Shown here: piece after piece, positions 6,454-55,554 of the stretch
How positions within the stretch are numbered: position 1 is the first letter of the stretch
Layout: every line of letters starts with the position of its first letter
Source: Thermoplasmatota archaeon
GTDB taxonomy: Archaea; Thermoplasmatota; E2; JACPAO01; JAHFTW01
Direction of reading: 5' to 3'
NCBI GenBank assembly: GCA_041601615.1
Contig: JBFIHX010000004.1
Coordinates: forward strand, 32,001-96,000
Length of the DNA stretch: 64,000 nucleotides
Notes under the pieces: model-generated
Databases searched by the model: none
Told to the model about the DNA's origin: nothing
Seen by the model: the letters and a program-made list of their open reading frames with translations, nothing else
Program-made: the position numbers and the translations under genes

Positions 6454-7865
6454 GCAGCACCCCCCGCGGCCGCCGCATCTGCCCCACCCAAACCGCCCGC
6501 TCCCGCCGTAGAGGTCGTGCGCATGCTCTGCATCAACAACGGAGGCACAGCAGCCAACAACAACGTACCAGAAACAAGCGCCAATGCGAATGCAATGCCA
6601 TGCGACATAATCAGGAACGCCAACGCATACGGCGCGATGATGCCGGACGCCGTGATGCTCGCCTCACTCCACCCAAACGCCCCGCCCCGTTGCAAAGGCG
6701 GCACACTGTCAATGATGAGCGCCGCCGTCACCGGCCGCCCAAGGCCATCCGCAAGGCCCAGCAAAATCCAACTCACAATGATCCACGGCAAGGACGTTGT
6801 CGCCATCAAGAGATTGAAAAACGCAGCCGCGACCAAGCTCGACACCAACACCAACTTGTGTCTACCCGTGCGGTCTGCATAGCGTGCCCCAAACGGCTGA
6901 GCAAGCCCGAACGCCACCCAAGAGGAAGCAGCCACGATGCCCACCCATTGCACCGACAACCCTTGCAACACGAGGTAGCGCGGAAAATAGACCGGATAGA
7001 CCGCCACGGACAAGCCGAACAAGAACAGATACAAGGACGCCCAGCGAACATTGCGCCCCGCCTGCACCGGAATCGGCTGCGTGGACAACAGCCTGCTACG
7101 AATACGCTTGAGCCGTGTTCCCACCGGCCGCATGGACGCCCGCATGGAACGAATCTCCGTAGCCAACCGGCGCTCCTCAAGCCCCGAGCCAGCCAGAGGA
7201 CCCGCACGAACCCCTCCGCCCACGCTTGCACCGGCGCCTACGCCCGCGCCACCATGCCGGCCCGCAACCATGAGCGCCAGCAACGATAAAAAAGACGCAA
7301 ACGACAACAAGCCACCCAACAGGAAGACAAAACGATACCCAGACGCCAACATCAGACCCCCCACGACCAGACCCAACGCATGGCTCCATCCCTTGGTGAG
7401 TCCGAAGTACGCATACACCGTCGCTCGAACATTGCGCGGCGCCACCTCCGCCATCAACACCTGCAAACCAGGCCCCGATGCGGCGCCCGAAAGCGAACCG
7501 GCAGCAGCCAGCGCCAGAAACTGCAACGGCGTGTGCACCAACAAATACGCCGGGAACGTCAACACCGACACGAAGACAAAACCAAGCACCACCGCCGGAC
7601 GACCAAAGAACCGATGGTGCCGCCCCGCCAACAACTGCACAACAATCGCCACCACCGCCATCAGGCTGTAGATGCCACCCACCTGCAAGAACGTCATACC
7701 CCGATCCAAAAAGAACAACGGCAACACCGTCACCAAGAGACCGCCAAGGATTCCCGAAATGAGATAGACCGCCAAAAACAACTTCAAACGCGGAGCACGC
7801 CGCAACACATCCCGCATTTCCACCCAAAAAGTGCGCACACGCCCTCTTTGGCTCTCACTTGGCAT
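6450..7865 (-). CDS. MFS transporter
   Basis: About 12 TMs; GARYADRTGRH motif A; RGGAFG; start 7865 or 7817. Confidence 0.85.
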   Translation of the reverse strand: MPSESQRGRVRTFWVEMRDVLRRAPRLKLFLAVYLISGILGGLLVTVLPLFFLDRGMTFLQVGGIYSLMAVVAIVVQLLAGRHHRFFGRPAVVLGFVFVSVLTFPAYLLVHTPLQFLALAAAGSLSGAASGPGLQVLMAEVAPRNVRATVYAYFGLTKGWSHALGLVVGGLMLASGYRFVFLLGGLLSFASFLSLLALMVAGRHGGAGVGAGASVGGGVRAGPLAGSGLEERRLATEIRSMRASMRPVGTRLKRIRSRLLSTQPIPVQAGRNVRWASLYLFLFGLSVAVYPVYFPRYLVLQGLSVQWVGIVAASSWVAFGLAQPFGARYADRTGRHKLVLVSSLVAAAFFNLLMATTSLPWIIVSWILLGLADGLGRPVTAALIIDSVPPLQRGGAFGWSEASITASGIIAPYALAFLIMSHGIAFALALVSGTLLLAAVPPLLMQSMRTTSTAGAGGLGGADAAAAGGAA

Positions 7866-7956
7866 GCAAGGAGCACAGTCAAAGACGCAAATTAAAACAG
7901 GGGCGGGGAACAACATGACGCCCGGCGGTTTTGATACCGCCACGCATCCGCACACC

Positions 7957-8844
7957 ATGGAGGGGCTCATTCTGACGCTCGTTGGGACCGGCACCCACCA
8001 AGCCGTGCTGCCCCGCCGCATCCACCTAGACCTACGCCCCGGCACCGGCCAATTGCACATCCCCGACGCGCCCGGCGCCGACGTATCATGGCGCTCCTCC
8101 GTAGACGCCGCCTGGTGCTCTGCCCTCGCCCTGACCCATCGCAACGATGTGGACGGCGAACTTCGCGTCACAAGCCCCAACCCCATGAGCGGCATCAGCG
8201 CAGGACTCAGCGTAGGCCTCCTCTCGCTTGCCTGCTTGCTCGATCGACCCCAGCCACCCGCCCATTTTGCCACGGGAGGCGTCCTCAAACCCACAAGCCA
8301 AGACACCCAAGTCGGCTGGCTGCAAGGCGGCAACGCCACAGCAATCAAATCCAACGCCGCCGCCCGACTAGCACCCCAACTCGGCTTGCACCAGCCCATA
8401 TTCCTAGCCCCACCCGGACCCACCACCCCCGTGCCCGGAGTCCAATTGCGCACCGCCACCGACCTCGCAACCGCCTACCGCCACATTGATCACATCGGCT
8501 ACCAAGAATTGGCAGCACGCCACCACGAGCTGCTGCACTCCTCGGCCTCCACACCCGACCCCGGCCCGACCGCATGGATCCACCCCTCCCGCAACGCGCC
8601 TCCACGCACATTGCCACCCCACATCGAAGGCATCCGCATCCACGCAGGCGACCCACGCAACGAATTGAACCCAGGCCAAGTATTGGTGCGCCTGGAAGAC
8701 GCCGGACGCATGCTCTGGGCCGTGCAGTGTGCCAACACCCCGGACCTCGCCGAAGCCCTTCCCCAATGGATGGACTACGCCCGCGCAGCCGCCGCGGCCC
8801 CAGACCCATCCTCGACCGGGCGCGATGGCGCAGACTTGGCGTAG
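7957..8844 (+). CDS. Stand-alone Lon-protease C-terminal (S16)-like protein
   Basis: GISAGLS (GPSAG-like Ser), ATGGV, VG, IK..AA (Ser-Lys dyad pattern); no ATPase domain. Confidence 0.55.
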   Translation: MEGLILTLVGTGTHQAVLPRRIHLDLRPGTGQLHIPDAPGADVSWRSSVDAAWCSALALTHRNDVDGELRVTSPNPMSGISAGLSVGLLSLACLLDRPQPPAHFATGGVLKPTSQDTQVGWLQGGNATAIKSNAAARLAPQLGLHQPIFLAPPGPTTPVPGVQLRTATDLATAYRHIDHIGYQELAARHHELLHSSASTPDPGPTAWIHPSRNAPPRTLPPHIEGIRIHAGDPRNELNPGQVLVRLEDAGRMLWAVQCANTPDLAEALPQWMDYARAAAAAPDPSSTGRDGADLA

Positions 8845-8878
8845 CAAGGCACCCTGCACCGCGCCAGCCCCCTACCGA

Positions 8879-9667
8879 CTACGCGGCTGGCTTGCGACCC
8901 ATCACATGCAGAGCCGCACCCATCGCCGCCACCGACGAATACAACGCCATTTGTTCCTCGAGCGCCCAAAAACGACGACGCAAATCCTCGTTCTCTTGCA
9001 AGGCCACAAACACCTCCTCGGTCACGAAATTGTTCAACGAGCCCTTCCCCGCCACCAACACGTCCTCGGCGCCCGCCTCCACAAACAACGACTCCAATTC
9101 AGCCGGAGCAAACGCATGGACCGTGTTGCCATACGGGTCCTTATTCAGGCCCTGCTCCGCACAAACCAAGGCATCCTCAACGCTACCCTGCGTCAGCATT
9201 CCAATCGCATGCAACCAGCGGTTGTCGCACGACACATAGAAACCCCCGCCCGGCCGCAAGACCCGCAAAAACTCCCGCGCCACCTCCTTGCGCGAATCAA
9301 AGCAATACGACAACGGATCACCTTCACAGAACACGAAATCGAAGGCACCATCCTCGAAGGGCAAATCATCGATGCTGCCCTCGACGTAACGCACCGGAGC
9401 GTCCGACGGAAACTCCTCGCCTATGCGTGTGCGCGCCACGTCCAGCATACCCTTCGACAAATCCAACAACGTCACATCGAAGCCCTGGCGAAGATAATGC
9501 ACCGAGAACCGCCCCGTCCCCGCGCCCGCATCCAGAACCCGACCCGACGACGGCAGCACGGTCGCGGCACTCTTCAAAGTCAAATGGTCCAGCAACTTCC
9601 AACGCGGACCGCTCACATGGCCGTCGTATTCGCTGGCCACCTCATCGTAACAGGCAATCGCATCCAT
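8879..9667 (-). CDS. Class I SAM-dependent methyltransferase
   Basis: VLDAGAGTG, DLS.GML, LPFEDGAFD, RVLRPGG. Confidence 0.92.
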   Translation of the reverse strand: MDAIACYDEVASEYDGHVSGPRWKLLDHLTLKSAATVLPSSGRVLDAGAGTGRFSVHYLRQGFDVTLLDLSKGMLDVARTRIGEEFPSDAPVRYVEGSIDDLPFEDGAFDFVFCEGDPLSYCFDSRKEVAREFLRVLRPGGGFYVSCDNRWLHAIGMLTQGSVEDALVCAEQGLNKDPYGNTVHAFAPAELESLFVEAGAEDVLVAGKGSLNNFVTEEVFVALQENEDLRRRFWALEEQMALYSSVAAMGAALHVMGRKPAA

Positions 9668-9762
9668 GCCGAGTCACACTCCCCTATCCGAGGTAAACAC
9701 ATGGCGTCGCTTCGTTCCCCCCATCATCACAGCCGCGCCGCCAAATTGCGACTGGCGAGAAC

Positions 9763-11274
9763 CTAGTTTCGCCAACTGCCCGGATTGAACAACAGCAACG
9801 CCGTGAAGATCTCCAAGCGACCAAACCACATCAACAGCGACAACAACAGTTTGCTGCTAGGCAGGAGCGCCGCGTAGTTCTGCGTCGGCCCCACCACGCC
9901 AAAGCCAGGACCCATGTTGCTCAGCGCCGACACACTCGCGCCCGCCGCATCCACAGCCCCAAGCGCCGGGTCCGAGGCCGTCAAGACAAACGTCCCAAGC
10001 ATCATGAGTGCCACGTAGCTGAAGAAAAACGCCACCACCGCCATCAGAGTCGCCTCCTGCAACGCCTTGCCACCCAACCGCACCGGCACCACCGCCTTCG
10101 GGTGCACGATCTTCATGAGCTCGCGCCGCACAATCTTGAACAAAATCAGAATCCGCACATGCTTCATGCCCCCCGCAGTACTTCCCGCCGCTCCCCCCGT
10201 CACCATCACCAAAAAGAGCAGGAATTTCGCCGCCGCCGGCCACGCATCAAAATCGGCCGTGCCAAACCCAGTGCTCGTGGAAAGCGACGCCACATTGAAC
10301 GCCCCGCCTCGAAGCGCCGACGTAAGGCTTGCTCCGGCGTGCCAAACGAGGCCCGTAATCGTCAACGTGCCCAGCACAAACGTGGCCATGAAGAACCGCC
10401 ACTCCGCATCCTTCCACATCTGCCGCCAGTCGCCATGCAGCGCATGGTAGTGCAGCGTGAAATTGGTGCCAGCAATCAGCATGAACACGATGATCACCGC
10501 CTCGAAAATCCACGAATCAAAGTACGAAATGCTGGCGCCATGGTTGCTAAAACCTCCCGTGGACAGCGTCGTGAACGTATGCAGCAGCGCATCGAAGAAC
10601 GCCGCCTTTCCCGCCGTGCCCGACTGCAAAATCAAGCCCAACAAAATTACGAACAAGACCAAGCTGATCAGCAGGTAAATCGCCCAGAGACTCTTGGCCG
10701 TCTGCGCCAACCTCGGCCGCAACCGCGTTACACTTGGACCCGGCGCCTCCGCCTGCAGCAACTGCATACCGCCTTGGGTCAATCGGGCCAGCACCGCGAC
10801 ACTCAACACAATGATGCCCATGCCTCCAATGAACTGAATGAATGCGCGCCACATGTGTACACTCGGCGTCACCGCTTCCAAGTTCGTGATGACCGTGGAG
10901 CCCGTGGTCGAAATTCCACTCATGGACTCAAAAAACGCATCCACGGGCGAACGCAGCGTCCCCGTTAGCAAGAACGGAAGCGCCGAAAGCGCCACCAGAA
11001 CAATCCAGCCAATGCCCACCGTCAGGTACGCCTCGCGGTCCGCCAAGTCCTCCTCTGAGACTCGGCTGGCGGCCCAACGCAGACTCTCACCAAGCGCAAA
11101 CGACAAGCCCGCACAAAGCAGGAACAACAAGAAATTGCGAGCCACGCCGAAGCCAAGCACCTTGAGGTCCGCGACGTCGTAGAACAACGCCATCACTGCC
11201 GGCAGCAAGAAAGCCAGCGCGTACAAGCGCGTGATGCTCCCGACGGCCCCGACGACCCGAAGTGGACGCAGCAT
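9763..11274 (-). CDS. trkH: Trk potassium uptake membrane protein
   Basis: FESMSGISTTG, STGGF, STGFG, GSTAGGMK, SNMGPG, GRLEIF. Confidence 0.95.
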   Translation of the reverse strand: MLRPLRVVGAVGSITRLYALAFLLPAVMALFYDVADLKVLGFGVARNFLLFLLCAGLSFALGESLRWAASRVSEEDLADREAYLTVGIGWIVLVALSALPFLLTGTLRSPVDAFFESMSGISTTGSTVITNLEAVTPSVHMWRAFIQFIGGMGIIVLSVAVLARLTQGGMQLLQAEAPGPSVTRLRPRLAQTAKSLWAIYLLISLVLFVILLGLILQSGTAGKAAFFDALLHTFTTLSTGGFSNHGASISYFDSWIFEAVIIVFMLIAGTNFTLHYHALHGDWRQMWKDAEWRFFMATFVLGTLTITGLVWHAGASLTSALRGGAFNVASLSTSTGFGTADFDAWPAAAKFLLFLVMVTGGAAGSTAGGMKHVRILILFKIVRRELMKIVHPKAVVPVRLGGKALQEATLMAVVAFFFSYVALMMLGTFVLTASDPALGAVDAAGASVSALSNMGPGFGVVGPTQNYAALLPSSKLLLSLLMWFGRLEIFTALLLFNPGSWRN

Positions 11275-11342
11275 CCAAACCGTCCGACGCCTAGGTTAGC
11301 CAAGAGGCTTCGCTCCGGCCCGAGCAGGCTCAAGGAACCGAT

Positions 11343-12188
11343 TCAGCAGCGGCGCAACAGAAGAGCAACGGACGCAATGGCGACGAAAAACAGCGGTACG
11401 CCAAGTCCCGGCGCATCCGTTCCAGCAGGCGACCCCTCGATCACCGGCCGCACCTGCAACTGCCACGCTTCCGCGCTGTCGTGATCAAGCCACAGCAGCA
11501 CATCCTGTCGGCCGGCTTCGGTGGCCTCAAAGGTGTAGGTAAAGCACGCCATCCAGCGGGTGCCCTCTTGACACGAGGCATCGACAAGCGGTTGGAATAG
11601 CCACGACTGCTGGGTCTCGTTGCGCCCATCCACCATGGCCTGAACCGTCAAGGTCTCAGGCAGCAGCGCGTCGGCCGGAAACAAGACGGGAACCAACACC
11701 ACCTCGAAGGAAACCGAATCGCCAGGAGCAGCAAGCGCATTGAGCCACACGGGTCCAGGCACCAGCTCCGTCGCCTTTGCCGGACACAAACATGTCTGGT
11801 CAAAGTACAGCCGCGCCGTGGCGTTCTCGGTGCCCGGATTGTGCAGCCTCAACGTCGCAAAATCGGTGTGCTGAAGGGTCCAAGCCTCAAAGCCCCCAGT
11901 GCCGTTCCAAAAAGAGGTGCCCACCCGAGCATCATTTTGATCCAGCAAAACATCCACAATGCCGTTCGTGTCGCCGCGCAATAGCACCTGCCAGCCTGCT
12001 TCAAGCGGACAGCGATTGAAGCCAAGTGTGCGCTCCACGGTCTCGCCGGGGCCCAACTCCAGGGTCCACAATTGGATGTGGTTCCAGGCGTCCACGCCCA
12101 TATCGCATTCCGCCTCGTGCTCGCCGTGACCCGCAATCGACGGCACCAGCAAAAGCGACAGGAACCAGACCGCCCCCCATCCGCGCAT
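11343..12188 (-). CDS. Secreted protein with PGF-CTERM-like anchor
   Basis: Signal peptide, HGEHE after cleavage site, C-terminal APGLG-hydrophobic helix-RR. Confidence 0.72.
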   Translation of the reverse strand: MRGWGAVWFLSLLLVPSIAGHGEHEAECDMGVDAWNHIQLWTLELGPGETVERTLGFNRCPLEAGWQVLLRGDTNGIVDVLLDQNDARVGTSFWNGTGGFEAWTLQHTDFATLRLHNPGTENATARLYFDQTCLCPAKATELVPGPVWLNALAAPGDSVSFEVVLVPVLFPADALLPETLTVQAMVDGRNETQQSWLFQPLVDASCQEGTRWMACFTYTFEATEAGRQDVLLWLDHDSAEAWQLQVRPVIEGSPAGTDAPGLGVPLFFVAIASVALLLRRC

Positions 12189-23674: not shown

Positions 23675-24529
23675 TTAGCCCGTCGGATCCCGCCACGGCC
23701 CATCCGCAATGAAAGACCAGTCCTCAGTTGGAACTTGATCATAGAACTGCGTCAGAAAAATCTCGAATCGCTGCTCGACTACAACCGTCGGCTGCGACTT
23801 ACCAGGAAACACACGCACCAAGTACGAGCGATAATCCTCGCCATGCGCCGGCGGCATCTCTTCGCCATCCACCTTCAAAATCTGCGGACTCTGGCCATCC
23901 ACTTGCACATGGTCCTCCGGTACCACCGTCGTTTCATTCATGATGCCAATGCTCAACGTGTCCCCGATGCCACTGGACGGCTCCCAAATCATCTCCGCCT
24001 GGATGTACGTCACCGGCCGCTGCACAAACGTGTCAAACGTATTGATGGACGCAGCAAAGGCACAGGGATTGACGCCTCGCCCATAGACTCCAGTGACACC
24101 TAGGCCCACGCCGCATTGCAGGAAGCCATTGTAATTGAGCAACTCTGAAAACGGCAAACTGGACACATCCACCACCAACTGAATCTTCACCACAGGAGGC
24201 CGATCCACTCCCGCCACCACATCCGTACTAACCTGCAACGTCGAGTAACCCGCCTTCGTGGCCGTCAAGAAATACGTCCCCGGTTCAAGGTCGGCAAAGA
24301 CAAACAAGCCGTCCTTGTCCGAAAGCGTCTCCCGGCCGTCCTGCATCGCCACCGTCGCCGCCGAAAGGGGCGTGAACGTTGCATCCACCACAACGCCACG
24401 AATCACTCCCGTGGAATCAGTCGCCTTTGTCTCCAAATTTTCGAACTCTTCCGGCTCATTATTGGGTGCCGCACTCTCGGCACAACCAGACAGCAACAAC
24501 ACTCCAAGTAGGAGCCACAGCACACGCAT
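23675..24529 (-). CDS. Lipoprotein with carboxypeptidase-regulatory-like domain (paralog A)
   Basis: LSGC lipobox; G.IRG.V.D, DG.F.F.DLEPG.Y; clear paralog of 31753 and 32799 genes. Confidence 0.85.
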   Translation of the reverse strand: MRVLWLLLGVLLLSGCAESAAPNNEPEEFENLETKATDSTGVIRGVVVDATFTPLSAATVAMQDGRETLSDKDGLFVFADLEPGTYFLTATKAGYSTLQVSTDVVAGVDRPPVVKIQLVVDVSSLPFSELLNYNGFLQCGVGLGVTGVYGRGVNPCAFAASINTFDTFVQRPVTYIQAEMIWEPSSGIGDTLSIGIMNETTVVPEDHVQVDGQSPQILKVDGEEMPPAHGEDYRSYLVRVFPGKSQPTVVVEQRFEIFLTQFYDQVPTEDWSFIADGPWRDPTG

Positions 24530-24631
24530 GGGTCGGCACTGGCAGCATGGACCCAAAACCATTGCCGTCGCATCGCCACGCGATGAGCCCGCGCAGCAAA
24601 CATCATCAACCAACCCCGGCTCGCGCGACCC

Positions 24632-25054
24632 ATGGCGAGGGAAATCCCCGTCGAGGAACACCTCGAAAAGCAGTTGGCGGCCGGCCGCAAGGTCATCGCG
24701 AACGATGCACAGAGCCGCGCCTTGTTTGCGCAGCTCAAATCCGAGTGCCCCGACGTGGACGAAGACGCAATCGTGCGCGCCTTTGCGACACCCGGCTTCG
24801 GCACCAAAAACGTCGAGGCGGCCGTGGTCGCCACCGTGCGCCAAAAGCAATTCAACGCGCAAAACCCGCGCCCCGCGTACAAGGACATCTACGCCCACCT
24901 TCTACCCGAAGAAATGGCCGACGACATCCGCGACGACCCCGAATACCGCGGCCAATTTGCCGACCTTCTTGGAGAAATCGAAGAAGAATTCGACCCCGAC
25001 GGCGGCATCAACGACACCGAGATGCGCCGCGAGATCAAGGAAGCCCTAGCGTAA
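24632..25054 (+). CDS. Hypothetical acidic protein coupled to nucS
   Basis: Typical codon usage; TAATG overlap with nucS start. Confidence 0.75.
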   Translation: MAREIPVEEHLEKQLAAGRKVIANDAQSRALFAQLKSECPDVDEDAIVRAFATPGFGTKNVEAAVVATVRQKQFNAQNPRPAYKDIYAHLLPEEMADDIRDDPEYRGQFADLLGEIEEEFDPDGGINDTEMRREIKEALA

Positions 25055-25839
25055 TGCAGCTCGTCCGTGACCCGGACGCAGCGACCGCACTCACCTTCCT
25101 GCGCGCAGAACTCACATCCCTGCGAGAAGAAAAGGGCCGCATGATCCAGGTGGTCGCCGACTGCGCCATCCAATACCAAGGCCGCGCTCGCAGCATGCTC
25201 CACCGAGGCGAACGCCTCCTGCTGCTGAAGCCCGACGGCACATTCCTCGTCCACACGGCCACGAAGGCAAAGCCGGTCAACTGGCAACCCCCCGGCGCCA
25301 CGTTCCACGCCGAGATCGAAGAAAACCAACTCGTCTTGACCGCATACCGGCCCAAGCCCGAGGAAATCGTCAAGGTCACGTTCCACGACATCCGCATCTG
25401 CCTTGCCGTGCCGCTGCGCGACGCCGAAGAATTGGCCCTCGTGGGCAGCGAAGACGACCTGCAAGAGCTCCTGTTCAAGCACCCAGAACTGGTCGAGCCT
25501 GGCTTTGTGCCCCGCCGCCGCGAACGAGACACCAAACAGGGCTACTACGACCTCGACGGCGACGACGCCACCGGCCGCCGCCTCGTCGTAGAGGTCAAGC
25601 GCGGCACCGCCGGCCTCAAGGACGCCCAGCAACTCTGGCGCTACGTCGAACCCTTGCGGGCCCAGAACCCAGACGGAAAAGTTCGAGGCGTACTCATCGC
25701 CCCCCGCGTCGCCGACAAGGCCCGCGCCCTCCTCTCTGACCACGACCTAGAATGGAAGGAATTAGACTGGGACGACGTACTGCCCAAAGTCGAGCGTATG
25801 CGCCGCGTCGGGCAAGTGGGCCTCGGATCGTTTTCGTAA
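25054..25839 (+). CDS. nucS: Mismatch endonuclease NucS/EndoMS
   Basis: Y.GRA.S, K.DGTFLVH, PVNWQPPG, SEDDLQ, VVEVKR, QLWRYV, VRGVLIAP. Confidence 0.95.
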   Translation: MQLVRDPDAATALTFLRAELTSLREEKGRMIQVVADCAIQYQGRARSMLHRGERLLLLKPDGTFLVHTATKAKPVNWQPPGATFHAEIEENQLVLTAYRPKPEEIVKVTFHDIRICLAVPLRDAEELALVGSEDDLQELLFKHPELVEPGFVPRRRERDTKQGYYDLDGDDATGRRLVVEVKRGTAGLKDAQQLWRYVEPLRAQNPDGKVRGVLIAPRVADKARALLSDHDLEWKELDWDDVLPKVERMRRVGQVGLGSFS

Positions 25840-25877
25840 CGGGGTGGCCGAGCGTAGCGAGTGCCGCCCGGAATGAT

Positions 25878-25895
25878 CGACCTTTTCGAAGGTCG
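25878..25895. repeat. Palindrome CGACCTT-N4-AAGGTCG, left copy
   Basis: Perfect 7-bp arms; same arms at 31657-31674. Confidence 0.8.
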
Positions 25896-26180
25896 TGGCA
25901 GTGTAACATACAATCTAGGTAGATTAGCGTCTAATTACCTGGAGTATTATATACATGGCTGTGACAAACGAGGAAGTTCGCCGGAGTGAGTTTCGAAAGA
26001 AACGCCAGGGCGAAGCCTCGGCTCCTTAAGATGAGCGAAAATTTCGCTCATATTTCCGGGACCGAGCAAGGCTGCGGTGTATCTTCTATTGCACTGAGGC
26101 GGACGAAAAAGCAAGCATTGAAGCCCAGGCTCCCGGAGGCGTCCTTTGGAGTCAGCAAAACCGGTGTCTTCGTGCTTGCA

Positions 26181-26738
26181 ATGGGGCATGTTGGGCTCAT
26201 ATCGTGGTTGCTTCGGCCCGCACTATTGTACAAGAGAACCCTCGGCCGAGCCACATACGCTGGCGACGCCTTGGCCCACAATTTCGGGCAGCAACGACGC
26301 GCCGGAGTCACCTTGCTTGCACAACGCCACCTCGACCACGGGCGCCCGCGCCGCGCCCTTAGACTTGCCCAACGAAGCACCGCATTGAATCCCCTTCACT
26401 CAGACGCTTTGCGCATCCAAGCTGACGCGCTCCTTCAGGGCATTGAGCAAGAATCAGTAGACGACCCGGCCCGGCGTGACGTGCTTGATGAAGTCAGTCA
26501 AGCACTCGAACGCGCTGCCCGAGCCGCCATCACCGACCCCTGTTCTCTGCGCATCATGCTGGTCGTCGTCGTCGAATTCCACGCCGCCATGGGCAATTAT
26601 GGCACGGCCCAAGAAGTCCTCGAATCCGCTGCATCCATCGACCCGCACCTGACTAGAGCGTTTCTGGCCACCAAGCCCTGGGCACAGCGGCTTCACGCTG
26701 CCCCTGCCACATGGCAAGGTGGCGCCGAAATCAGTTAA
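26181..26738 (+). CDS. TPR-like helical protein
   Basis: A..L.P..A..LQ and G.Y..A...LE.A..IDP patterns; start uncertain. Confidence 0.5.
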   Translation: MGHVGLISWLLRPALLYKRTLGRATYAGDALAHNFGQQRRAGVTLLAQRHLDHGRPRRALRLAQRSTALNPLHSDALRIQADALLQGIEQESVDDPARRDVLDEVSQALERAARAAITDPCSLRIMLVVVVEFHAAMGNYGTAQEVLESAASIDPHLTRAFLATKPWAQRLHAAPATWQGGAEIS

Positions 26739-26986
26739 TCACGATCGACTCGGAGACTTCGCCGGGCAGCTTCCAGTGCATCCTTGGCTGAAGCTGGCGC
26801 ATCCATGCCTCGAAGTGAAGTAGAATCGAGAACAAGCCGCAGGTCCCGCCGGACAGCCTCCTCCACGGCCGCACGGACGTAGCTGCTCGGGTTCGGAGCC
26901 AACCCCGGACGCAGGTGCAAAAGCTCCTCCACATCGCCTCGAAGTGGAACTGGTAACGACACCTTCCAAGACCGAGCATCCTCCAT
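26735..26986 (-). CDS. Small ribbon-helix-helix-like protein
   Basis: KVSLP...SSYVRAAVEEAV pattern. Confidence 0.45.
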   Translation of the reverse strand: MEDARSWKVSLPVPLRGDVEELLHLRPGLAPNPSSYVRAAVEEAVRRDLRLVLDSTSLRGMDAPASAKDALEAARRSLRVDRD

Positions 26987-27167
26987 CCAGTATGCCCACC
27001 CCTTGGCCCAACTTAACCAAACCCAAATCCCCAATCGGCCCATAATCGCCTAACTCGATTTTATAGTTACTCCATATATGCTCCTTTGCAGGTGCATTGT
27101 TGCCCTGTGCGGCTTGTCGTGCCCGACTCACCACCCCGCAAGGGGCACCACCCAAAGGCAAGGCACG

Positions 27168-27317
27168 ATGAGCAAGAAGTCCGCCACCGCAAACCATTGT
27201 CGGGTTTGCAAACTGCAACCAGAGGAGGTCCTGGATTGCACGCATCGGCGCACGGCGGCACAACTCGTGGGTTGGCGTCGATGCACCTCCTCCCTTTGGC
27301 ATTGGAGCAAACAATGA
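27168..27317 (+). CDS. Small Cys-containing ORF
   Basis: HCRVC; ATGA overlap with next ORF. Confidence 0.35.
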   Translation: MSKKSATANHCRVCKLQPEEVLDCTHRRTAAQLVGWRRCTSSLWHWSKQ

Positions 27318-27616
27318 CTGCAAATAATCCCCCGCGCCCGCATTGCACAGGAACAGGCCGAAGACGACCGCACGACCGAAAAATTCCCGATGACCTACTC
27401 GCGCCCATAGATGGTGCGAGATGGGAAAGCTTCGCGACTCCAGAAACAACACCGGGCGAAAGGACCCTCTTAGCGGGACTGGATAACGGCACATGGGGCC
27501 TCTGGCGTCGACCGAATCAAAGCGTCTACGTGAGCGGCCCCGGCGGCGAGCCTATTCCAGTTGATTCGAAAAAGTGGCCCTTGGATCGATTGCAAAGGGC
27601 GTTTGATGACGGGTAA
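27314..27616 (+). CDS. Hypothetical protein
   Basis: Overlapping starts/stops with neighbours on both sides. Confidence 0.45.
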   Translation: MTANNPPRPHCTGTGRRRPHDRKIPDDLLAPIDGARWESFATPETTPGERTLLAGLDNGTWGLWRRPNQSVYVSGPGGEPIPVDSKKWPLDRLQRAFDDG

Positions 27617-28160
27617 TGCCGACGTTTGCTCCAAAAATGACTTGGCCTGTGAATCGTCGCTACCGGCCGATATGAATTGTGTGGAGCCAGTAGCGGCGGT
27701 CAAGTCAAGGTCAGTAGAACCGGGATCGATACGAATTCTGGCGGCATTAGCCCAAGGCGAAGTGTGTTCAGTCGCAGAAATTGCAAAGCGCCTGGATTTG
27801 CACGCAAAGACCATTGCGTACCATTCCTTAATCCTCGAGCAGGCTGGTGCACTTCGACGAACACCGTGGGGGCGCGAGACACTTCTGCACCGACATGTCC
27901 GCTCCCCTTCCGAGGCTATCGTTCTCCGGTTGTTGCAAGACCCGATACGACACCGAATGTTGGATTTTCTCGGCCAGCGGCCAGTGCAGCAGACAGAATT
28001 GGCACATGCGGCTGGTTCGAAGCCTTTCGCTGCCTATCGGTTATTGCGAGAACTTGTGTCGCGGGATCTTGTAGACGTCACGGCAGGGCCGCGCCGAATC
28101 TACAAGGCAAAACGGTCGTTGATTGATATTCTCCATGCGGCTGCCTCAAAAACGCAATAA
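27606..28160 (+). CDS. Tandem winged-HTH (ArsR-like) regulator
   Basis: SVAEIAKRLDL...TIAYH..ILEQAG and a second wHTH (LQDPIR..ML...ELA...L.ELV..DLV). Confidence 0.75.
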   Translation: MTGNADVCSKNDLACESSLPADMNCVEPVAAVKSRSVEPGSIRILAALAQGEVCSVAEIAKRLDLHAKTIAYHSLILEQAGALRRTPWGRETLLHRHVRSPSEAIVLRLLQDPIRHRMLDFLGQRPVQQTELAHAAGSKPFAAYRLLRELVSRDLVDVTAGPRRIYKAKRSLIDILHAAASKTQ

Positions 28161-28277
28161 TGCAATAGATTGAGGCCAATATATTGGCCGTAAACCGTCA
28201 GGTTTTGCAGATTGGGAGTATGCAAGCTATGTACCTGGCGCCAATCCTTGATTGCCCGACAACGGGCAGTGATTCAA

Positions 28278-29924
28278 GTGAAAGCCATACCGTATGCAGC
28301 CATCCTCGCCCTTGTGCTGGCGAACGTAGGCCCAACAACCGCAAGCATCCCCACGGACTTCCTGGTCCCTGCCGGGGAAACTGTCTTCCTTTCTGGTGTT
28401 GTCAACGCAGACACAATTCGAATTGATGGAACCGTTCATGCCGTAGGCGACCTTACGCTGGTCGCTCAATCTATCGTGATCGGATCATCGGCCCAAATCT
28501 TGGGCAATGATGGCTTGGGCTACGTTGGATATGCTGATGGAGCCAACCTCGCATTCAAGGCGACCCAAGCCCTGGAAATTCTGGGAGTCATCAAGGCTGG
28601 ACACGGCGCCGACATGCCACACTCCCCGGAGTTTGTGGGTGCCGATGGCGGTGAAGGCGGTAGCGTCTATGTCCATGCCCCCTACATTTCAGTCTTCGAC
28701 GGGGCATACCTGGCTCCGGGCCACGGCGGCCAGGGGGCAGCAGTCACGGCCGTTGCGCCCCCCGCCGGTACCGTCGTTTCCGGTGGCAACGGTGGCAACG
28801 CTGGCATTGTGCTCCTCGACGGAACGCTGAGCCTCCCCGAAGGCGGCTCGACCTTTGGCGCAGCCAATGGCGGCGAAGGCGGCCTTGCATCCAGTTCGGA
28901 CTCTGGACTAAGCACCATCGTCCTTGGCGGCAGCGGCGGCGACGGCGGCCTAGTCGCCACCACCGATCTAGCGTTCAGTTCCCACGCGCCCGAAACCGGC
29001 TACACGCTGTTTCTTGACCTATTGAACGTGGATTCGCTAGGTTGGGTCACGGCGACGGGACAATATGTGCCCGACGCACAAGGAAATGATAAAGCCTTGA
29101 CTCCCACCGAAGAACTTCTCAATATTAATTTCAACCCCCCACGAAAACCGAAGGACCCTATTGGTCCGCCTCCAGACCCCATGGCAGTGGCTGAATTCGT
29201 TTGGTCCCTGATTCCAGACCCTTCCGGCTACCTTGACAATCTTCCGGACCCCTTCGAATTGCTGCCTGAAGATCTTCCAAACCCGATGGATTATCTTCCT
29301 GAGGATTTGCCTCTGCCTGAAAACCTCCCTTTGCCTGGCGGGATTGGCCCCCTTTGCGATCAAGGAATTACGACAAGGTGCCTTGTTACACTCATCGGCA
29401 TTGAGGACGAAAGCGGCGGATGCGGCCGAGGTGCAGATGGAAAGGACGCATCAAACACCGGGGCCCCGGGAGGCAATGGCGGCAAGGGAGCCCCGGGACC
29501 GTCGGGAACCACCATGGGAGGAACCGGGGGCCCTGGCGGCGGAGGCAATCCCGGCGGTGGAGCTGAAGCCAAAGGGGGCGACGGTGGAAAAGGAAGGTGC
29601 TTCTTTGCCCGGGGCGGCGATGGCGGCGATGGCACAGCCATAGGCGAAGATGGGGGAGATGGAGGCATCGGCGGAGATGGAGGCTCTTCCAGCCTCATAG
29701 GCGGCCCTGGTGGGCGAGGAGGCAGTTGCGGTGCAGGGGGCCTTGCGACGGGCACGGGTGGAAAAGGCGGATCTGGTGGAACCTTTGGGGCCCCAGGATC
29801 GCCGGGGAAGGGCTCCAGCACCCCCGGAATACCTGGACAAGGAGGAAACGGTGGCGAAGGGGGCCCAGGATTGATTCCGGGACCTAGCGGAGCCGGCGGA
29901 GGTTGTAGCGCAGACTCCGTGTAA
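28278..29924 (+). CDS. Secreted glycine-rich protein (PGRS-like GGxGGxGG repeats)
   Basis: N-terminal hydrophobic signal; two GG(N/D/E/K)GG blocks separated by LPED/LPDP Pro-acidic repeats. Confidence 0.8.
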   Translation: MKAIPYAAILALVLANVGPTTASIPTDFLVPAGETVFLSGVVNADTIRIDGTVHAVGDLTLVAQSIVIGSSAQILGNDGLGYVGYADGANLAFKATQALEILGVIKAGHGADMPHSPEFVGADGGEGGSVYVHAPYISVFDGAYLAPGHGGQGAAVTAVAPPAGTVVSGGNGGNAGIVLLDGTLSLPEGGSTFGAANGGEGGLASSSDSGLSTIVLGGSGGDGGLVATTDLAFSSHAPETGYTLFLDLLNVDSLGWVTATGQYVPDAQGNDKALTPTEELLNINFNPPRKPKDPIGPPPDPMAVAEFVWSLIPDPSGYLDNLPDPFELLPEDLPNPMDYLPEDLPLPENLPLPGGIGPLCDQGITTRCLVTLIGIEDESGGCGRGADGKDASNTGAPGGNGGKGAPGPSGTTMGGTGGPGGGGNPGGGAEAKGGDGGKGRCFFARGGDGGDGTAIGEDGGDGGIGGDGGSSSLIGGPGGRGGSCGAGGLATGTGGKGGSGGTFGAPGSPGKGSSTPGIPGQGGNGGEGGPGLIPGPSGAGGGCSADSV

Positions 29925-29983
29925 TCCCGTGCGCATTATCCTTATCCCTCTTTGCCCATCCCGACTCTACCAAAGGTGACTAC

Positions 29984-31120
29984 ATGTCTTGGCCCCCATA
30001 CCTCATTCTTGCCCTCATGCTCTCGATTTCAGGTTGCAGTTCTAAATCTCAAGTTGAAGATAATCAATCCCCATTGCCATTCACAAATGATCGCGAGCTT
30101 CCAGATTCAATCCATTGGTTCGATACATCGTCCAATGGCGCAGCAGGCAACCGGATGACCTTGGCAACGAGCGAAGGTATCCTCGCAATGGACCAACCTC
30201 TAGAGCCGTGGACAATCCACACAATCTACGGAGCGGAATTTGAAAATCGGACCACTTTTTTGCCGGATGCTGAACCTTGGAATCTTGTAGCTGCGATGGG
30301 TCCACGAGGCCCAGTCATTGCCTACCGGAGCCCCCAATATGCGATGTATGTAGCCGAATGGGATGGCTCAGATTGGGCGCGAGGAACATTGATCCCCCCT
30401 CCCGGCGAAATCTACGGGTTTCCGACTTTGGCAGGTTCCGAGGAAGAACTCATGCTGAGTTTTCCAGTGCTTTCCTCATTCCTGAACGAGCCCCGATACA
30501 GTGTACTCCGCCTTACAAATGGAATATTAGCTGATTTATCTATCAGCGAACGATTGGATTTCCCAACTATTCCAATATTAAGCCAAGGAGCTATGTATTT
30601 AGAACATGAAACATTGACTTTCGCGTTTGCCCGTAATTTATCAACAGTGGAGGTGCGGACTTCACTCTGGCAAGACCTCGCCAAAACCCCTGCGATAGAA
30701 CTTCAAGGCCCCAATCCTGACGGACTACCACAATCATACTATACAGAAATAGCGAAAAAAGAAGATGGTGGATTTGTCATTGCAATCACTGCATGGGAAG
30801 CTTTTTTCTTGACGGAAACAGGCCTTCGCGACGCCATCATTTATGATCTTGGAGAAGAAACGGCAACATCAATCCAGACCAGAGACATAGTTGCCGTGCG
30901 GACCACCCCCCTAGGCGTGGCGGTTGTCCGAACCGATGCACAGGCCACCCACCACATCCAGATCTTGGGTTCGGGCAAGGATGTGGATATTGCGCAGTCC
31001 GACTGTACCCGATTCTCAATTTTGCCGGATGCGAAAACAATCACGCTAACCACTCGTGAAGGCCAATGGGAATCCCAGTTTGGACTTCTCCCAGACAATA
31101 TCCAAACCTGTAGTCCTTGA
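29984..31120 (+). CDS. Lipoprotein of unknown function (low GC)
   Basis: ISGC lipobox; AT-richer codon usage than flanks. Confidence 0.75.
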   Translation: MSWPPYLILALMLSISGCSSKSQVEDNQSPLPFTNDRELPDSIHWFDTSSNGAAGNRMTLATSEGILAMDQPLEPWTIHTIYGAEFENRTTFLPDAEPWNLVAAMGPRGPVIAYRSPQYAMYVAEWDGSDWARGTLIPPPGEIYGFPTLAGSEEELMLSFPVLSSFLNEPRYSVLRLTNGILADLSISERLDFPTIPILSQGAMYLEHETLTFAFARNLSTVEVRTSLWQDLAKTPAIELQGPNPDGLPQSYYTEIAKKEDGGFVIAITAWEAFFLTETGLRDAIIYDLGEETATSIQTRDIVAVRTTPLGVAVVRTDAQATHHIQILGSGKDVDIAQSDCTRFSILPDAKTITLTTREGQWESQFGLLPDNIQTCSP

Positions 31121-31656
31121 GCGAAAACGGCCATCCGACCCCACCAACGCTCTCACAGCCAAGCCGGGCCTCGATTCCCTTATGGGGCCCGTGACGACTT
31201 ACTGCCAGAGATCCCGGAGGGCGACGGCGTGAATCCTCGCCACGCGGCCATCCCGGCCGAATACAGCTCCTTGCACTGCGCCGCCGGCTGCCCACGCTGC
31301 AAAACTCCAGAAGGAACCATGCAATGCAGCCAAGACGCCGCTTGGCGAGCATTGGCAATGCTTCAAGCCCAGGCACGGCAAGCCACTGAATCCACGCGCC
31401 CTGAATCCCCTATGGGAGCCAAGAAGCCGGAGCTATGGTCTTGCAAAGGACATCCTCAAACTCCCTTGAATTCACCTGAGCCACACAGGCCGCAGGCAGA
31501 GCGCATATCTTGACGGTGCAGGAACTAGTACCGGAACGGCCATGAGTCTCAACGCATTGCCACGACCTAGGCCTCCCCGTCAAACGACCACTCCATTCAA
31601 CACCTCCCTTTGAAGTGTAGCATCCCGGAAAGTCGTACTTGGACGCTATCTGGCAT

Positions 31657-31674
31657 CGACCTTTTTCAAGGTCG
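31657..31674. repeat. Palindrome CGACCTT-N4-AAGGTCG, right copy
   Basis: Ends 6 bp before the right direct repeat. Confidence 0.8.
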
Positions 31675-31680
31675 TTGGAA

Positions 31681-31752
31681 TGGGACGACGTGCTACCCAA
31701 AGTCGAGCGCATGCGTCGGGTCGGGCAAGTGGGCCTCGGTTCGTTTTCGTAG
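31681..31752 (+). repeat. Duplicated nucS 3' end (attR-like)
   Basis: Encodes WDDVLPKVERMRRVGQVGLGSFS*, 65/72 nt identical to 25768-25839. Confidence 0.92.
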
Positions 31753-32622
31753 CTACGACGGAATCGGATGCGCTCCGTCGTTCAGGTATGTCCAGCCTTC
31801 ATCCGGGACAAACCGGTAGAAGTTGGTGTTGATGATCTCGAATTCCTGTTCTAGGACCACCGAAACACTTGTGGATCCAGGGAAGACGCGCAACAGGAAG
31901 GACTCGTATCCGATGCCGTTGTATTCCTCGATGGTCGTGCCGTTGACCAACAGTGTTTGCGGGCTGCCACCGTCCACTGTCGCGTAGTTGCTCGCGACGG
32001 AGTTCGGGTCAAAGTGCCCAAAATTGAGGCCATCGCCGAGCACGTTCGTACCGTCCCAGATCAATTCAGACTGCGCAGCCGTGACAGGTCCCGCCACGAA
32101 CACATCGAAGGTATTGATCGAATCCAGAGCGGCGCACGGGTTGACAGAGCCACCCTGCCAGGCGGAACCGTCGACACCTGGGAGGCCGAAGCCACACTGG
32201 ATGTATCCGGTGTATTGAGTCACCTGCGTAAACGGCAGGTTGGCGGTGTCGCGCTCCAATTGCACCTTGACGATTGGCGGCGCCGCGATTCCCGCCTCCA
32301 CCACGGTGCTTGTCTGGGTTGAGCTGAAGCCGAGTTTGCTGATGGCGAGGAAGTAGGATCCGGGCTCTAGGTCTTTGAACAGGAAGGCGCCGTCCGCATT
32401 GCTGGTGGCTTCGATGCCTAGGCTCTGGATGGCGACGCGGGCGCCCTCGATGGGTGTGATGGAGGCGTCTAGGACCAAGCCCCGTATGACGCCGCGATCC
32501 TTGTCGACCACTATGTCGCCAAACTTGTCGTCGTCATCGCCGGGACCTGTTTTTGTTGCACCCTCCGTGCAGCCGGCGAGGACCACGGACAGGGAGATTG
32601 CGAGGATGATGAAGAACCTCAT
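31753..32622 (-). CDS. Lipoprotein with carboxypeptidase-regulatory-like domain (paralog B)
   Basis: LAGC lipobox; GYIQCG, NPC, LLRVFPG shared with paralogs. Confidence 0.85.
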   Translation of the reverse strand: MRFFIILAISLSVVLAGCTEGATKTGPGDDDDKFGDIVVDKDRGVIRGLVLDASITPIEGARVAIQSLGIEATSNADGAFLFKDLEPGSYFLAISKLGFSSTQTSTVVEAGIAAPPIVKVQLERDTANLPFTQVTQYTGYIQCGFGLPGVDGSAWQGGSVNPCAALDSINTFDVFVAGPVTAAQSELIWDGTNVLGDGLNFGHFDPNSVASNYATVDGGSPQTLLVNGTTIEEYNGIGYESFLLRVFPGSTSVSVVLEQEFEIINTNFYRFVPDEGWTYLNDGAHPIPS

Positions 32623-32798
32623 GCGCAAAAACCGGTTCCTGGAGAGTAAAACAGTTGTTGTCACATTGCAGGACAATCAGGTACACGAGGGAGAAAAGCG
32701 AAAAGGGTGTGCTGGCGGGTAGCCGGGGCCAAAACGGCCCCTGCGTTCGCTGCTACCACAGGCGCGAGGAGTGCTACGGGATCGAAGGCCGAGGAATC

Positions 32799-33647
32799 CT
32801 AGCTCGGAGTGGGGTGCTTGCCGTTCTCGAGGAACGTCCAGCCTTCGTCGGGCGAGAAGCCGTAGAAGTTGGTGTTGATGATCTCGAACTCCTGCTCGGC
32901 CACCAGCGACGGGGAGGTGGTGCCGGGGAACACGCGCAGCAGGAACGACTCGTAGCCGGGGCCGTTTTTGCTCTCGATGAGGGTACCGTTGACCAGCAGA
33001 ATGCGCGGGCTCGGACCGTCGGTGGCGATGTAGTTGCTGGCGGTGGTGCTTGGGTCGTAGTGGCCAAAGCTCAGGCCGTCACCAAGAATGTTGGTGCCTT
33101 CCCAGAACAGTTCGGATTGCGAGGCTGTAACTGGGCGCTGCACGAACACGTCGAAGGTGTTGACGGAGCCGGAGAGGAAGCACGGGTTGACGCTGCCGAC
33201 GCCGGGAATACCGAAGCCACATTGGAGGTAGCCGGAGTATTGCGAGAGTTCGGTGAAGGGGATGCTTTCGAGGTCGGGTTGAAGCTGGACCTTGACGATG
33301 GGCGGGGTGTCGACGCCGGCGACCACGTTGACGCTGGTCTGGGCCGGGCTGAAGCCGATTTTCTTGACGCCCAGGAAGTAGGTTCCGGGTTCGAGGTCGG
33401 CGAAGATGAATGCGCCGTCGGCATTGGAGACCGTTTCGATGCCGAGGCTCTTGATGCTGACCGTTGCACCTTCGATGGGGACGATGGACGGATTGAGGAC
33501 GATGCCTCGAATGGCGCCTTTGTCATCGTCCACGTCGATCTCGTCGAACTTGGTCTCTAGCTCGTCGCCGGAGTCCGCTGGAGCGCTTTCTGCACATCCG
33601 GCCAAGGTCACGGCAACAAGGATGAGCGCGAGGGACAGTGTCCGCAT
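32799..33647 (-). CDS. Lipoprotein with carboxypeptidase-regulatory-like domain (paralog C)
   Basis: LAGC lipobox; tandem duplicate of 31753-32622. Confidence 0.85.
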   Translation of the reverse strand: MRTLSLALILVAVTLAGCAESAPADSGDELETKFDEIDVDDDKGAIRGIVLNPSIVPIEGATVSIKSLGIETVSNADGAFIFADLEPGTYFLGVKKIGFSPAQTSVNVVAGVDTPPIVKVQLQPDLESIPFTELSQYSGYLQCGFGIPGVGSVNPCFLSGSVNTFDVFVQRPVTASQSELFWEGTNILGDGLSFGHYDPSTTASNYIATDGPSPRILLVNGTLIESKNGPGYESFLLRVFPGTTSPSLVAEQEFEIINTNFYGFSPDEGWTFLENGKHPTPS

Positions 33648-33950
33648 AGTATGGGACGATACTTTCGGGCACATAGCCGTTGTGTCGCAATCAATGCGCA
33701 CCGGCCATCCAGGCCCGCCAGGGACCTCATACGTCCATCATAAGTCCATCACGAGCCAACGGTGTTCGGGCCAGCCCCTGCGCTCTATTGGGAGGGGTGC
33801 AGAGAGGATGAGCGCGAGTGGGAGGGAATGAGTTGGGCGGCGAGAGGCAGGGTTGGAAGGGGAGGGGATGAAAGGGGCAGGGAGGGGCGGAGTGGGGAAC
33901 GGGGAATGGTCCCGGAGCCGGGCGCATTTGCACTGTTTTGGAATCGCGGT

Positions 33951-55086: not shown

Positions 55087-55554
55087 TTAGTTGTCCTCCT
55101 CTTCCATCTGGGTGACGATCACTTCAAAGTTGCAGAGCCGGTTGAAGCTCGGGGTGGCGCGGCCGTATGCGCGGGGCATGTAGGCCTTCTGGACGGTGCC
55201 CTGGTATGCACTTGCGTGCGTGATGACCAAGGTGTCCGTGTCCAGGCCCTTGTACTCGGCGTTGGCCTCGGCAGACTCGATGACACTGAGGAACATCTTG
55301 GCCACCTTGACGGGGTACTTGCCGGGGCCGAAGCCTTCACCGCGGCGGTGGGCAATCTTGCGCTTGCGGACCGTGAAGGGGACAGCCGTCTTGAGCGCCG
55401 CGACTTCCGTGAGGAAGACCTTGGCGCGGCTGACGGGCATGCCCTTGATGGCTTTGCAGACGTTGCGGCCGCTCTTGGGGGAGCAGTTGAGGTCCTTGCC
55501 GTAGGCGCGGGCCGTTTTTTCGGGGTCAGAGACCGTGCTGTATTTGGTAGTCAT
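55087..55554 (-). CDS. rpl22: 50S ribosomal protein uL22
   Basis: GKYPVK, NAEYKGLD, PRAYGRATP. Confidence 0.96.
   Translation of the reverse strand: MTTKYSTVSDPEKTARAYGKDLNCSPKSGRNVCKAIKGMPVSRAKVFLTEVAALKTAVPFTVRKRKIAHRRGEGFGPGKYPVKVAKMFLSVIESAEANAEYKGLDTDTLVITHASAYQGTVQKAYMPRAYGRATPSFNRLCNFEVIVTQMEEEDN

Follow-up and report, generated by a model that had tools for sequence, protein, structure and literature searches.

The mismatch-repair gene nucS (EndoMS) of a marine Thermoplasmatota archaeon is followed by something unusual in the window analyzed here, a 64,000-nucleotide stretch that corresponds to positions 32001-96000 of contig C4 in genome G000 (a metagenome assembly of 2.79 Mb in 30 contigs, 93% complete). 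Going downstream, one meets the last codons of the intact gene (its live, translated tail), a two-hairpin repeat (hp1-hp2), several kilobases of cargo, a solo copy of the second hairpin (hp2'), and finally, an untranslated echo of the nucS tail, which runs up to a convergent lipoprotein gene (Table 1). The stretch between the nucS end and that gene is a 5.9-kb insertion, foreign and specific to this lineage, and relatives retain the precise empty site. How did the end of a repair gene come to be present twice, with five recognized genes between the copies?

Table 1. Features at the nucS locus, in window positions
Feature	Positions	Strand	Evidence
nucS (EndoMS), intact, 256 amino acids, C-terminal end RRVGQVGLGSFS before the stop	25069..25839	+	Pfam NucS_N E 8.8e-28, NucS_C E 4.4e-26
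Live (translated) nucS tail, 26 codons including TAA	25762..25839	+	Direct-repeat search, reading of the sequence
Two-hairpin repeat hp1-hp2, 1 base after the nucS stop; hp2 at 25876-25895	25840..25896	+	nhmmer, blastn, fold
Cargo, 5.76 kb, low G+C content at third codon positions; recognized genes all on the + strand	25897..31654	+	G+C profile, third-position G+C content
TPR-repeat protein, start codon uncertain	25986..26738	+	Pfam TPR_14 E 9e-8
Small protein of 100 amino acids, core gene of the element family	27314..27616	+	Four paralogous copies in G000
Tandem winged-helix (ArsR/MarR-like) DNA-binding protein (predicted)	27561..28160	+	Pfam HTH_20 9.7e-9, MarR 2e-8
Glycine-rich protein, 570 amino acids, GGxGG repeats	28212..29924	+	No Pfam or PHROG family
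Probable lipoprotein, 378 amino acids, motif LSISGCSS	29984..31120	+	Lipobox read by eye
32-nucleotide stretch in common with the C8 tRNA-Gln element, 29/32	31617..31648	+	Two copies in the whole genome
Solo second hairpin hp2', no recognizable hp1 ahead	31655..31674	+	hp2 motif scan
Untranslated nucS-tail echo, 26 codons including TAG, 1 base after hp2'	31675..31752	+	Direct-repeat search
Convergent CarboxypepD_reg lipoprotein gene, original nucS neighbor	31753..32676	-	Pfam; orthologs beside nucS in G001 and G002

That DNA has been gained at this place is seen from the relatives. NucS was found in 32 of 41 related genomes (two of which, G001 and G002, belong to the same genus as G000), and a second match to its tail exists in G000 only. 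The empty site that the first-pass annotation had proposed to look for is present in both congeners: the convergent lipoprotein gene ends 34 nucleotides (nt) past the nucS stop in G002 and 64 nt past it in G001, and at 15 of 23 family-level loci, the end of a homolog of this gene lies no more than ~130 nt from nucS. Four cargo proteins were looked for in the nucS loci of 29 relatives, loci that reach 1.5 kb beyond nucS, and none was there. The G+C content at third codon positions is 0.46-0.63 in the cargo vs. 0.74-0.79 in nucS and its native neighbors, and overall G+C content dips to 0.47. The surroundings have a history of their own, with three paralogous CarboxypepD_reg lipoprotein genes around nucS, all on the minus strand (23675-24400, 31753-32676, and 32799-33701); the two downstream of nucS are tandem copies (70-75% DNA likeness), and the family flanks nucS throughout this family of genomes.

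Could the whole arrangement be a fault of assembly, with the nucS ends of two strains misjoined around unrelated DNA? The first-pass annotation had named such a strain chimera among the things that would refute its reading. This is a 30-contig metagenome assembly, and among four runs of one marine-metagenome study (X1-X4, available as contigs only), all of which contain the stretch, there is one, X2, in which the hairpin repeat breaks the assembly, so that records 7 and 8 end and start inside it. However, in X1 (possibly the source of this DNA), a single 25.7-kb contig spans the whole 8.2 kb from 24600 to 32800; the left junction is bridged by X3 record 16 (25232-26131) with no mismatch, and the right junction is bridged by X4 record 29 (31588-31971) with one differing letter. 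The chimera is not borne out when contigs from separate samples cross the junctions in this way, and we put its probability close to nil. Six loci with NucS turned up in a search of metagenome contigs, none of them near enough or long enough to show the tail region.

The tail and its echo form the sole long direct repeat found, 77 nt at 90% identity (69 of 77 bases; 25762-25838 against 31675-31751) with identical runs of 14 and 20 nt inside it, and in the nucS frame, both copies encode L(D/E)WDDVLPKVERMRRVGQVGLGSFS and then stop. The first-pass annotation had counted seven mismatches in the last 24 codons (from 25768), every one synonymous and at a third position, and its count is exact (GTA/GTG, CTG/CTA, CGT/CGC, CGC/CGT, CGC/CGG, GGA/GGT, and TAA/TAG). 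The repeat reaches two codons further upstream, which adds TTA/TTG (synonymous) and GAC/GAA (Asp/Glu, again a third position). Counting TAA vs. TAG, there are nine differences, nine of nine at third codon positions and eight of them synonymous, an outcome with a chance of 5e-5 if positions were random and of 9e-4 under free drift of the right copy with silent changes only in the other. As had also been remarked, the TAG of the echo (31750-31752) is immediately followed by CTA (31753-31755), where the convergent gene stops; no long open reading frame (ORF) runs into the echo (31675-31752). No tail/echo pair in G000 is more diverged than this one, and its 10% is consistent with the 5.8 kb that lie between the copies. 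To judge from their codons, the live tail and the echo look like two alleles of the nucS end, both diverged while coding. The C terminus of archaeal NucS is described as carrying a PIP motif, which binds PCNA (PMC8228993), and the tail here would be that PIP box.

The hairpins that follow the live tail have many relatives elsewhere in the genome. The 56 nt after the nucS stop (25840-25895) recur across G000 (85-88% alike by blastn at other loci) and fold as two hairpins (-26.5 kcal/mol), with compensatory stem variants among the copies. The nhmmer score of the nucS copy (E 5.3e-16) is circular, since that copy is one of the model's eight seeds; copies outside the seeds score at E 8.7e-8 or weaker. 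Twelve of 16 copies lie 1-59 nt past the stop of a co-oriented long ORF, and at 10 of the 16, the upstream 28-95 nt (a segment that takes in the last codons of the gene where a copy stands behind one) are repeated as an echo that begins 1-8 nt past hp2, with no cargo between. At nucS, hp1-hp2 has no echo right behind it, and the echo starts instead after the solo hp2'. The hp2 motif occurs 13 times in the 2.79 Mb vs. 0.33 in shuffles; by eye, 12 of these are preceded by an hp1-type hairpin, and the right copy at nucS is the only one that is not. That copy, hp2', is identical to the left hp2 at 18 of 20 positions, the two differing in the loop (TTCG vs. TTTC; both variants occur elsewhere), and to an hp2 at C3:92424 at all 20.

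In a census of 10,752 ORF tails, we found ~37 short-range echoes with spans of 62-306 nt; 19 candidates of longer range were inspected, and nucS is the only clean echo at kilobase range, with similarity that stops at the stop codon. The nucS unit is like the small tail/hairpin/echo units in its 56-nt element just after the stop, its gene orientation, its echo after the last hairpin, and its third-position differences, and it is unlike them in its span, which exceeds theirs with an offset of 5,913 nt and five recognized genes between two hp2 copies. No second cargo-bearing unit exists among the 13 hp2 copies in G000 or the nine in G002, and no consistent microhomology was found at the hp2/echo junctions of 10 loci. 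At most of the clear loci, the first base of the echo falls on a codon boundary of the tail (the count is small and biased by third-position mismatches), and at two young loci, its start is ambiguous by one base. The first-pass annotation had taken the nucS tail for a dedicated attachment site in a mismatch-repair gene. It is probably not one, given that the same tail/hairpin/echo arrangement stands without cargo behind many unrelated genes; for the same reason, the replacement tail is most likely part of the hairpin/echo habit. The gene is intact, and nothing links the event to what NucS does.

The two-hairpin repeat is genus-specific. A linker pattern gave 11 hits in G000, 4 in G002, and 0 in the 39 other relatives (0 in a reversed control), and although G001 has no hp2 copy, all nine copies in G002 come with hp1 and eight with an echo (one of them weak). 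Among the matches listed for the hairpin pattern in genome contigs, there were single chance matches in unrelated bacteria, with ~500 chance hits expected in 596 Gb. Five hairpin loci are orthologous between G000 and G002. At one of these, C1:24201, tail and echo show no difference within either genome and 5 differences in 30 between the genomes; tails that agree with their echoes within a genome while differing between genomes point to concerted evolution. Some loci, such as that of the glyceraldehyde-3-phosphate dehydrogenase (GAPDH)-like gene discussed below, are specific to G000, and their units have been gained since the split from G002. Two other places bear on the range of the family. 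At C2:114791-115049, three tandem hairpin units with a 109-nt period are accompanied by four copies of a 53-nt upstream segment; because they stand behind no long ORF, it may be an RNA gene or a short gene whose "tail" is duplicated there. At C40:8479-8498 of G002 (L077), a hairpin unit with its echo lies beside an apparent tRNA gene end, and so, the family is probably not restricted to the ends of protein-coding genes.

What, then, is an echo? Across the 12 loci that have differences behind ORFs of at least 300 amino acids, 43 of 51 tail/echo differences fall at third positions (p 1.7e-8 against 0.46, the third-position share expected with a freely drifting echo); the tally leaves out ORFs of <300 amino acids, many of which are spurious frames, and one 420-amino acid locus on C5. 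Together with the nine of nine at nucS, this upholds the earlier claim that both tails have been under coding selection. The GAPDH-like gene (C1:235666-235839, L053) is followed by a 264-nt two-unit hairpin array vs. 30 nt without a hairpin in G002. Its last echo is contiguous with a downstream flank conserved in G002 and has a C-terminal end MSMKMVGL before the stop, the live tail ends in MAMKMAG before its own stop, and the middle unit is a hybrid of both. This arrangement argues that the echo is the old end, that the live tail is a different allele, and that arrays grow by unequal exchange.

The same evidence bears on another account of the locus, in which the nucS tail was duplicated in place, the copies drifted independently, and unrelated DNA was inserted later, with no foreign tail at all. 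Such duplication would suit the young loci, where tail and echo are identical (65 of 65 at C1:24201 and 33 of 33 at C11:46743) and evolve in concert. Free drift should, however, hit all codon positions, and what is seen is nine of nine at nucS (p 9e-4) and 43 of 51 over the loci together; the GAPDH-like tails, moreover, differ in both length and residues, like two alleles. We think in-place duplication very unlikely.

The cargo itself encodes the five recognized genes (TPR, 100-amino acid, tandem winged-helix, glycine-rich, and probable lipoprotein), and two intervals in it, 26739-27313 and 31121-31654, show no frame-specific composition. No counterpart of the TPR protein accompanies the three sister copies of the core described below. 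Near the start of the TPR frame lies a perfect 21-nt palindrome (26031-26051; ATGAGCGAAA A TTTCGCTCAT), with an AT-rich, TATA-like stretch upstream of it (~25955-25966); a search of Rfam over 25000-32500 gave nothing real, its only match being a spurious one to an miRNA (E 0.07) over this palindrome. The palindrome may be an operator for the island's own winged-helix protein, for which it is a candidate. The AlphaFold2 model of the small protein has a predicted local distance difference test score of 72, and Foldseek found no fold like it in the PDB at E <= 0.001; the end of the small gene is probably overlapped by the start of the winged-helix gene. The winged-helix protein has Pfam matches in two stretches, an NCBIfam ArsR/SmtB match (9.4e-11) that is below that family's cut-off, and paralogs on C1 (56%) and C23 (37%). 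The glycine-rich protein is probably secreted, if the hydrophobic N-terminal stretch has been read correctly by eye as a signal sequence; its best Protein Atlas score (0.81) is uninformative, its N terminus is 54% alike to that of the C1 paralog, and a 42% homolog exists in G047. Among 5.8 billion protein clusters, just two relatives of the lipoprotein turned up, one of them in G047 beside the glycine-rich homolog.

The first-pass annotation saw no recombinase in the island, and all searches agree with it. Among 80 six-frame, stop-to-stop ORFs of at least 45 amino acids (25800-31760), no recombinase family was found in Pfam at E <= 0.05, with matches to the TPR and winged-helix genes only, besides two chance-level rows; PHROGs gave nothing useful on nine island ORFs; and stop-tolerant scans of the whole genome placed PF00589 matches on C16, C13, and C8 and one resolvase (PF00239) on C1, with no match to either on contig C4. 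Whole-genome scans likewise found no reverse transcriptase and no Y1 transposase. Nor are there convincing terminal inverted repeats, the best end-to-end pair being 14 nt long and not terminal. A transposon or casposon with target-site duplication was considered and rejected: there are no convincing terminal inverted repeats, no transposase family was found, and the repeat is 77 nt long and 10% diverged. A degenerate nucS-tail pattern matched no viral contig, and the lipoprotein has no relative there.

The core of the cargo is found again elsewhere in this genome. The small protein has four copies in G000 at 33-41% identity, and its profile finds it in none of the 31 other family genomes, including G001 and G002. 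Small protein, regulator, and the start of the glycine-rich gene recur together on C1 (69% DNA identity over 862 nt) and on C23, and the small protein alone recurs on C8. The C1 island (C1:179347-184174; L042, about 7354-12086) is 4.8 kb long, is missing from G002, and is without a recombinase; its direct repeats of 31-33 nt (L042 7321-7353 and 12087-12117) correspond to a single empty site in G002. It sits, as read by eye from the first codons, between a thioredoxin-like gene and an SCP2 gene. The C8 element (C8:83356-91800; L078 7357-15800) is 8.37 kb long, and a 17-nt repeat that corresponds to the 3' end of a tRNA-Gln gene (L078 15727-15800, minus strand) marks its borders. The 32-nt stretch just before hp2' in the nucS island (Table 1) matches this element and nothing else in the genome. 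A second integrase-like fragment lies 8,393 nt away on C8, with more G000-specific DNA to its left; possibly, two elements stand in tandem here. The third copy of the small-protein/winged-helix/glycine-rich module is on C23 (L043; 11,959 nt), nearly all of which is missing from G002; its G+C content goes down to 0.445, and its ends do not overlap; it would be either a replicon of its own or an unplaced contig that carries an island. The ends of the sister copies are free of the hairpin element, an argument for assigning the hairpins to the nucS site rather than to the mobile element. The suggestion in the first-pass annotation that the island is a satellite or a decayed element gains support here, in that the core recurs at three other places found only in G000, one of them beside integrase-like ORFs at tRNA-Gln.

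Might the nucS tail nevertheless be a classical attachment site? Archaeal integrated elements in 3'-distal parts of protein-coding genes are described as bringing a stop codon with them (14 of 68 in Thaumarchaeota; Krupovic et al. 2019, PMC6563490). By analogy, the 77-nt tail would be the site of site-specific integration by an element with a nucS-like attP (the attachment site on the element), whose integrase has been lost or is encoded elsewhere, and the hairpins would be incidental. The identical runs of 14 and 20 nt could host the crossover, three PF00589 matches and one resolvase are present elsewhere in the genome, and the cargo core is common to the tRNA-Gln element. What such integration leaves unexplained is the dispersed host repeat that stands, with tail and echo and no cargo, behind at least 10 other genes, and likewise the second hp2 placed exactly between cargo and echo when there are only 13 hp2 copies in 2.79 Mb. 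Sister islands, furthermore, use 17-nt and 31-33-nt repeats at unrelated sites, and there is no recombinase remnant in any frame. Measured against the cryptic integrated elements as described in that survey (PMC6563490), the nucS island is like them in its position at a gene 3' end, its direct repeats (the 77-nt repeat and, nested inside it, the 20-nt hp2 repeat with 18 of 20 matches), its new stop, the empty site in a relative, and a cargo of obscure function. It is unlike them in that it has no internal integrase, their defining feature, in that its flanking repeat is long (77 nt) and 10% diverged, and in that its junctions are a dispersed host hairpin repeat that duplicates tails elsewhere without an element. 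We consider classical integration unlikely.

A different possibility is that the hairpins are the island's own termini, that the small units elsewhere are scars left when cargo was deleted by hp2 x hp2' recombination, and that nucS is a site still loaded. Several points favor this: one hp2 x hp2' deletion would turn the nucS layout into precisely such a small unit, the hairpin shares the orientation of the upstream gene in every case, an echo, where there is one, always lies against hp2, and units such as that of the GAPDH-like gene have been gained since the split from G002. Yet cargo is found at 1 of 13 hp2 copies in G000 and 0 of 9 in G002, and no hairpins flank the three sister copies of the core. 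Each locus would, in addition, require the tail of its own gene, something that no known recombinase provides, and neither a reverse transcriptase nor a Y1 transposase was found in the 93%-complete genome. Own termini strike us as quite improbable.

The explanation that we favor, with middling confidence, is a nested locus, the simplest account to cover all of these observations: a tail/hairpin/echo unit behind nucS and, within it, between two copies of hp2, a recombinase-less member of the small element family confined to G000, in which the common core of small protein and winged-helix regulator is followed by surface-protein cargo. An element would have entered at hp2, either in this lineage or in a donor, leaving a 20-nt direct repeat that is comparable with the 17-nt and 31-33-nt repeats of the sisters. 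The whole block would then have reached nucS, or stayed there, by recombination, with the gene tail serving as homology and the hairpin as the end, although reentry of a circle excised between tail and echo would give equal junctions. The end of nucS is present as two alleles, of which the live tail is the second, as at the GAPDH-like gene; another lineage would thus have been the source or the carrier of the block, or of tail and hairpin at least. With its replacement 3' end, NucS stays whole down to the clamp-binding tail, and so, the insertion costs the host nothing and is neutral.

Several observations weigh against the nested locus. The hairpin unit and the island are both absent in G001 and G002, so that one must assume either two separate events at one site or the arrival of the block in one piece. 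The two hairpins hp2 and hp2' differ at 2 of 20 positions, and the eight bases that follow them match at 5 of 8, which makes for a weakly defined 20-nt attachment site. The integrase-like ORFs on C8 are weak and possibly frameshifted (one with a PF00589 score of 25.1 bits against a cut-off of 27.1 and the other with DUF3435 only, E 0.002), so that the link to integrase-type elements is soft. The C5 locus left out of the third-position tally (420 amino acids, ending at 55519, reverse strand) has 4 of 13 differences at third positions and, if included, brings the total to 47 of 64; we suspect a wrong frame. Neither a cargo-free nucS-hairpin-echo arrangement nor a circular or excised form was found in the contigs of the four runs (24600-32800), which drop rare variants. 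Finally, the outgroup nucS tails are too diverged to name the native tail: those of G001 and G002 are saturated at third positions (shared states 3 vs. 2 and 3 vs. 4).

The nested locus has partial likenesses among known processes. In homology-facilitated illegitimate recombination, as in template switching stalled at a hairpin, one side is anchored by homology while the other is joined without it, and a donor gene end with extra DNA can be put before the recipient end. The nucS locus, with a donor-like gene end ahead of the recipient's own, is similar to this, and it is dissimilar in that nucS-type units end at a hairpin and show no microhomology at the 10 junctions; we know of no description of this process with a fixed hairpin-repeat end or with recurrence at many genes. 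The REP/BIME, MIRU, and "tRNA-linked repeat" families are short structured bacterial repeats that occupy gene-end spacers in gene orientation, are sometimes tandem, and in some cases, come with a copied gene end. The present repeat is unlike REP/BIME in that no RAYT/Y1 transposase was found in G000, and to our knowledge, none of these families brackets kilobases of foreign genes. The portion of the literature covered here mentions neither integration into nucS nor hairpin units of this kind. Insertions that restore the end of a gene after entering its 3' end are known from integrase-bearing archaeal elements; what this locus adds is the tie to host-wide hairpin repeats that duplicate gene ends by themselves.

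There is a bolder thought, doubtful as we hold it to be: hairpins and echoes could be the ends of an undescribed route by which DNA is added behind essential genes without an element-borne recombinase, with nucS as the one locus still loaded with kilobases of cargo and the dozens of short echoes as empty or collapsed versions. A hairpin-ended block would be copied or recombined from another lineage, and the last codons, by serving as homology, would keep the gene end complete. For nucS itself, the outcome is ordinary, the repair gene and its clamp-binding tail being intact. For the lineage, the locus is the first link of its gene-end echoes to gene gain, and it suggests a possible route by which cassettes of surface-protein genes may enter archaeal chromosomes without a recombinase of their own.

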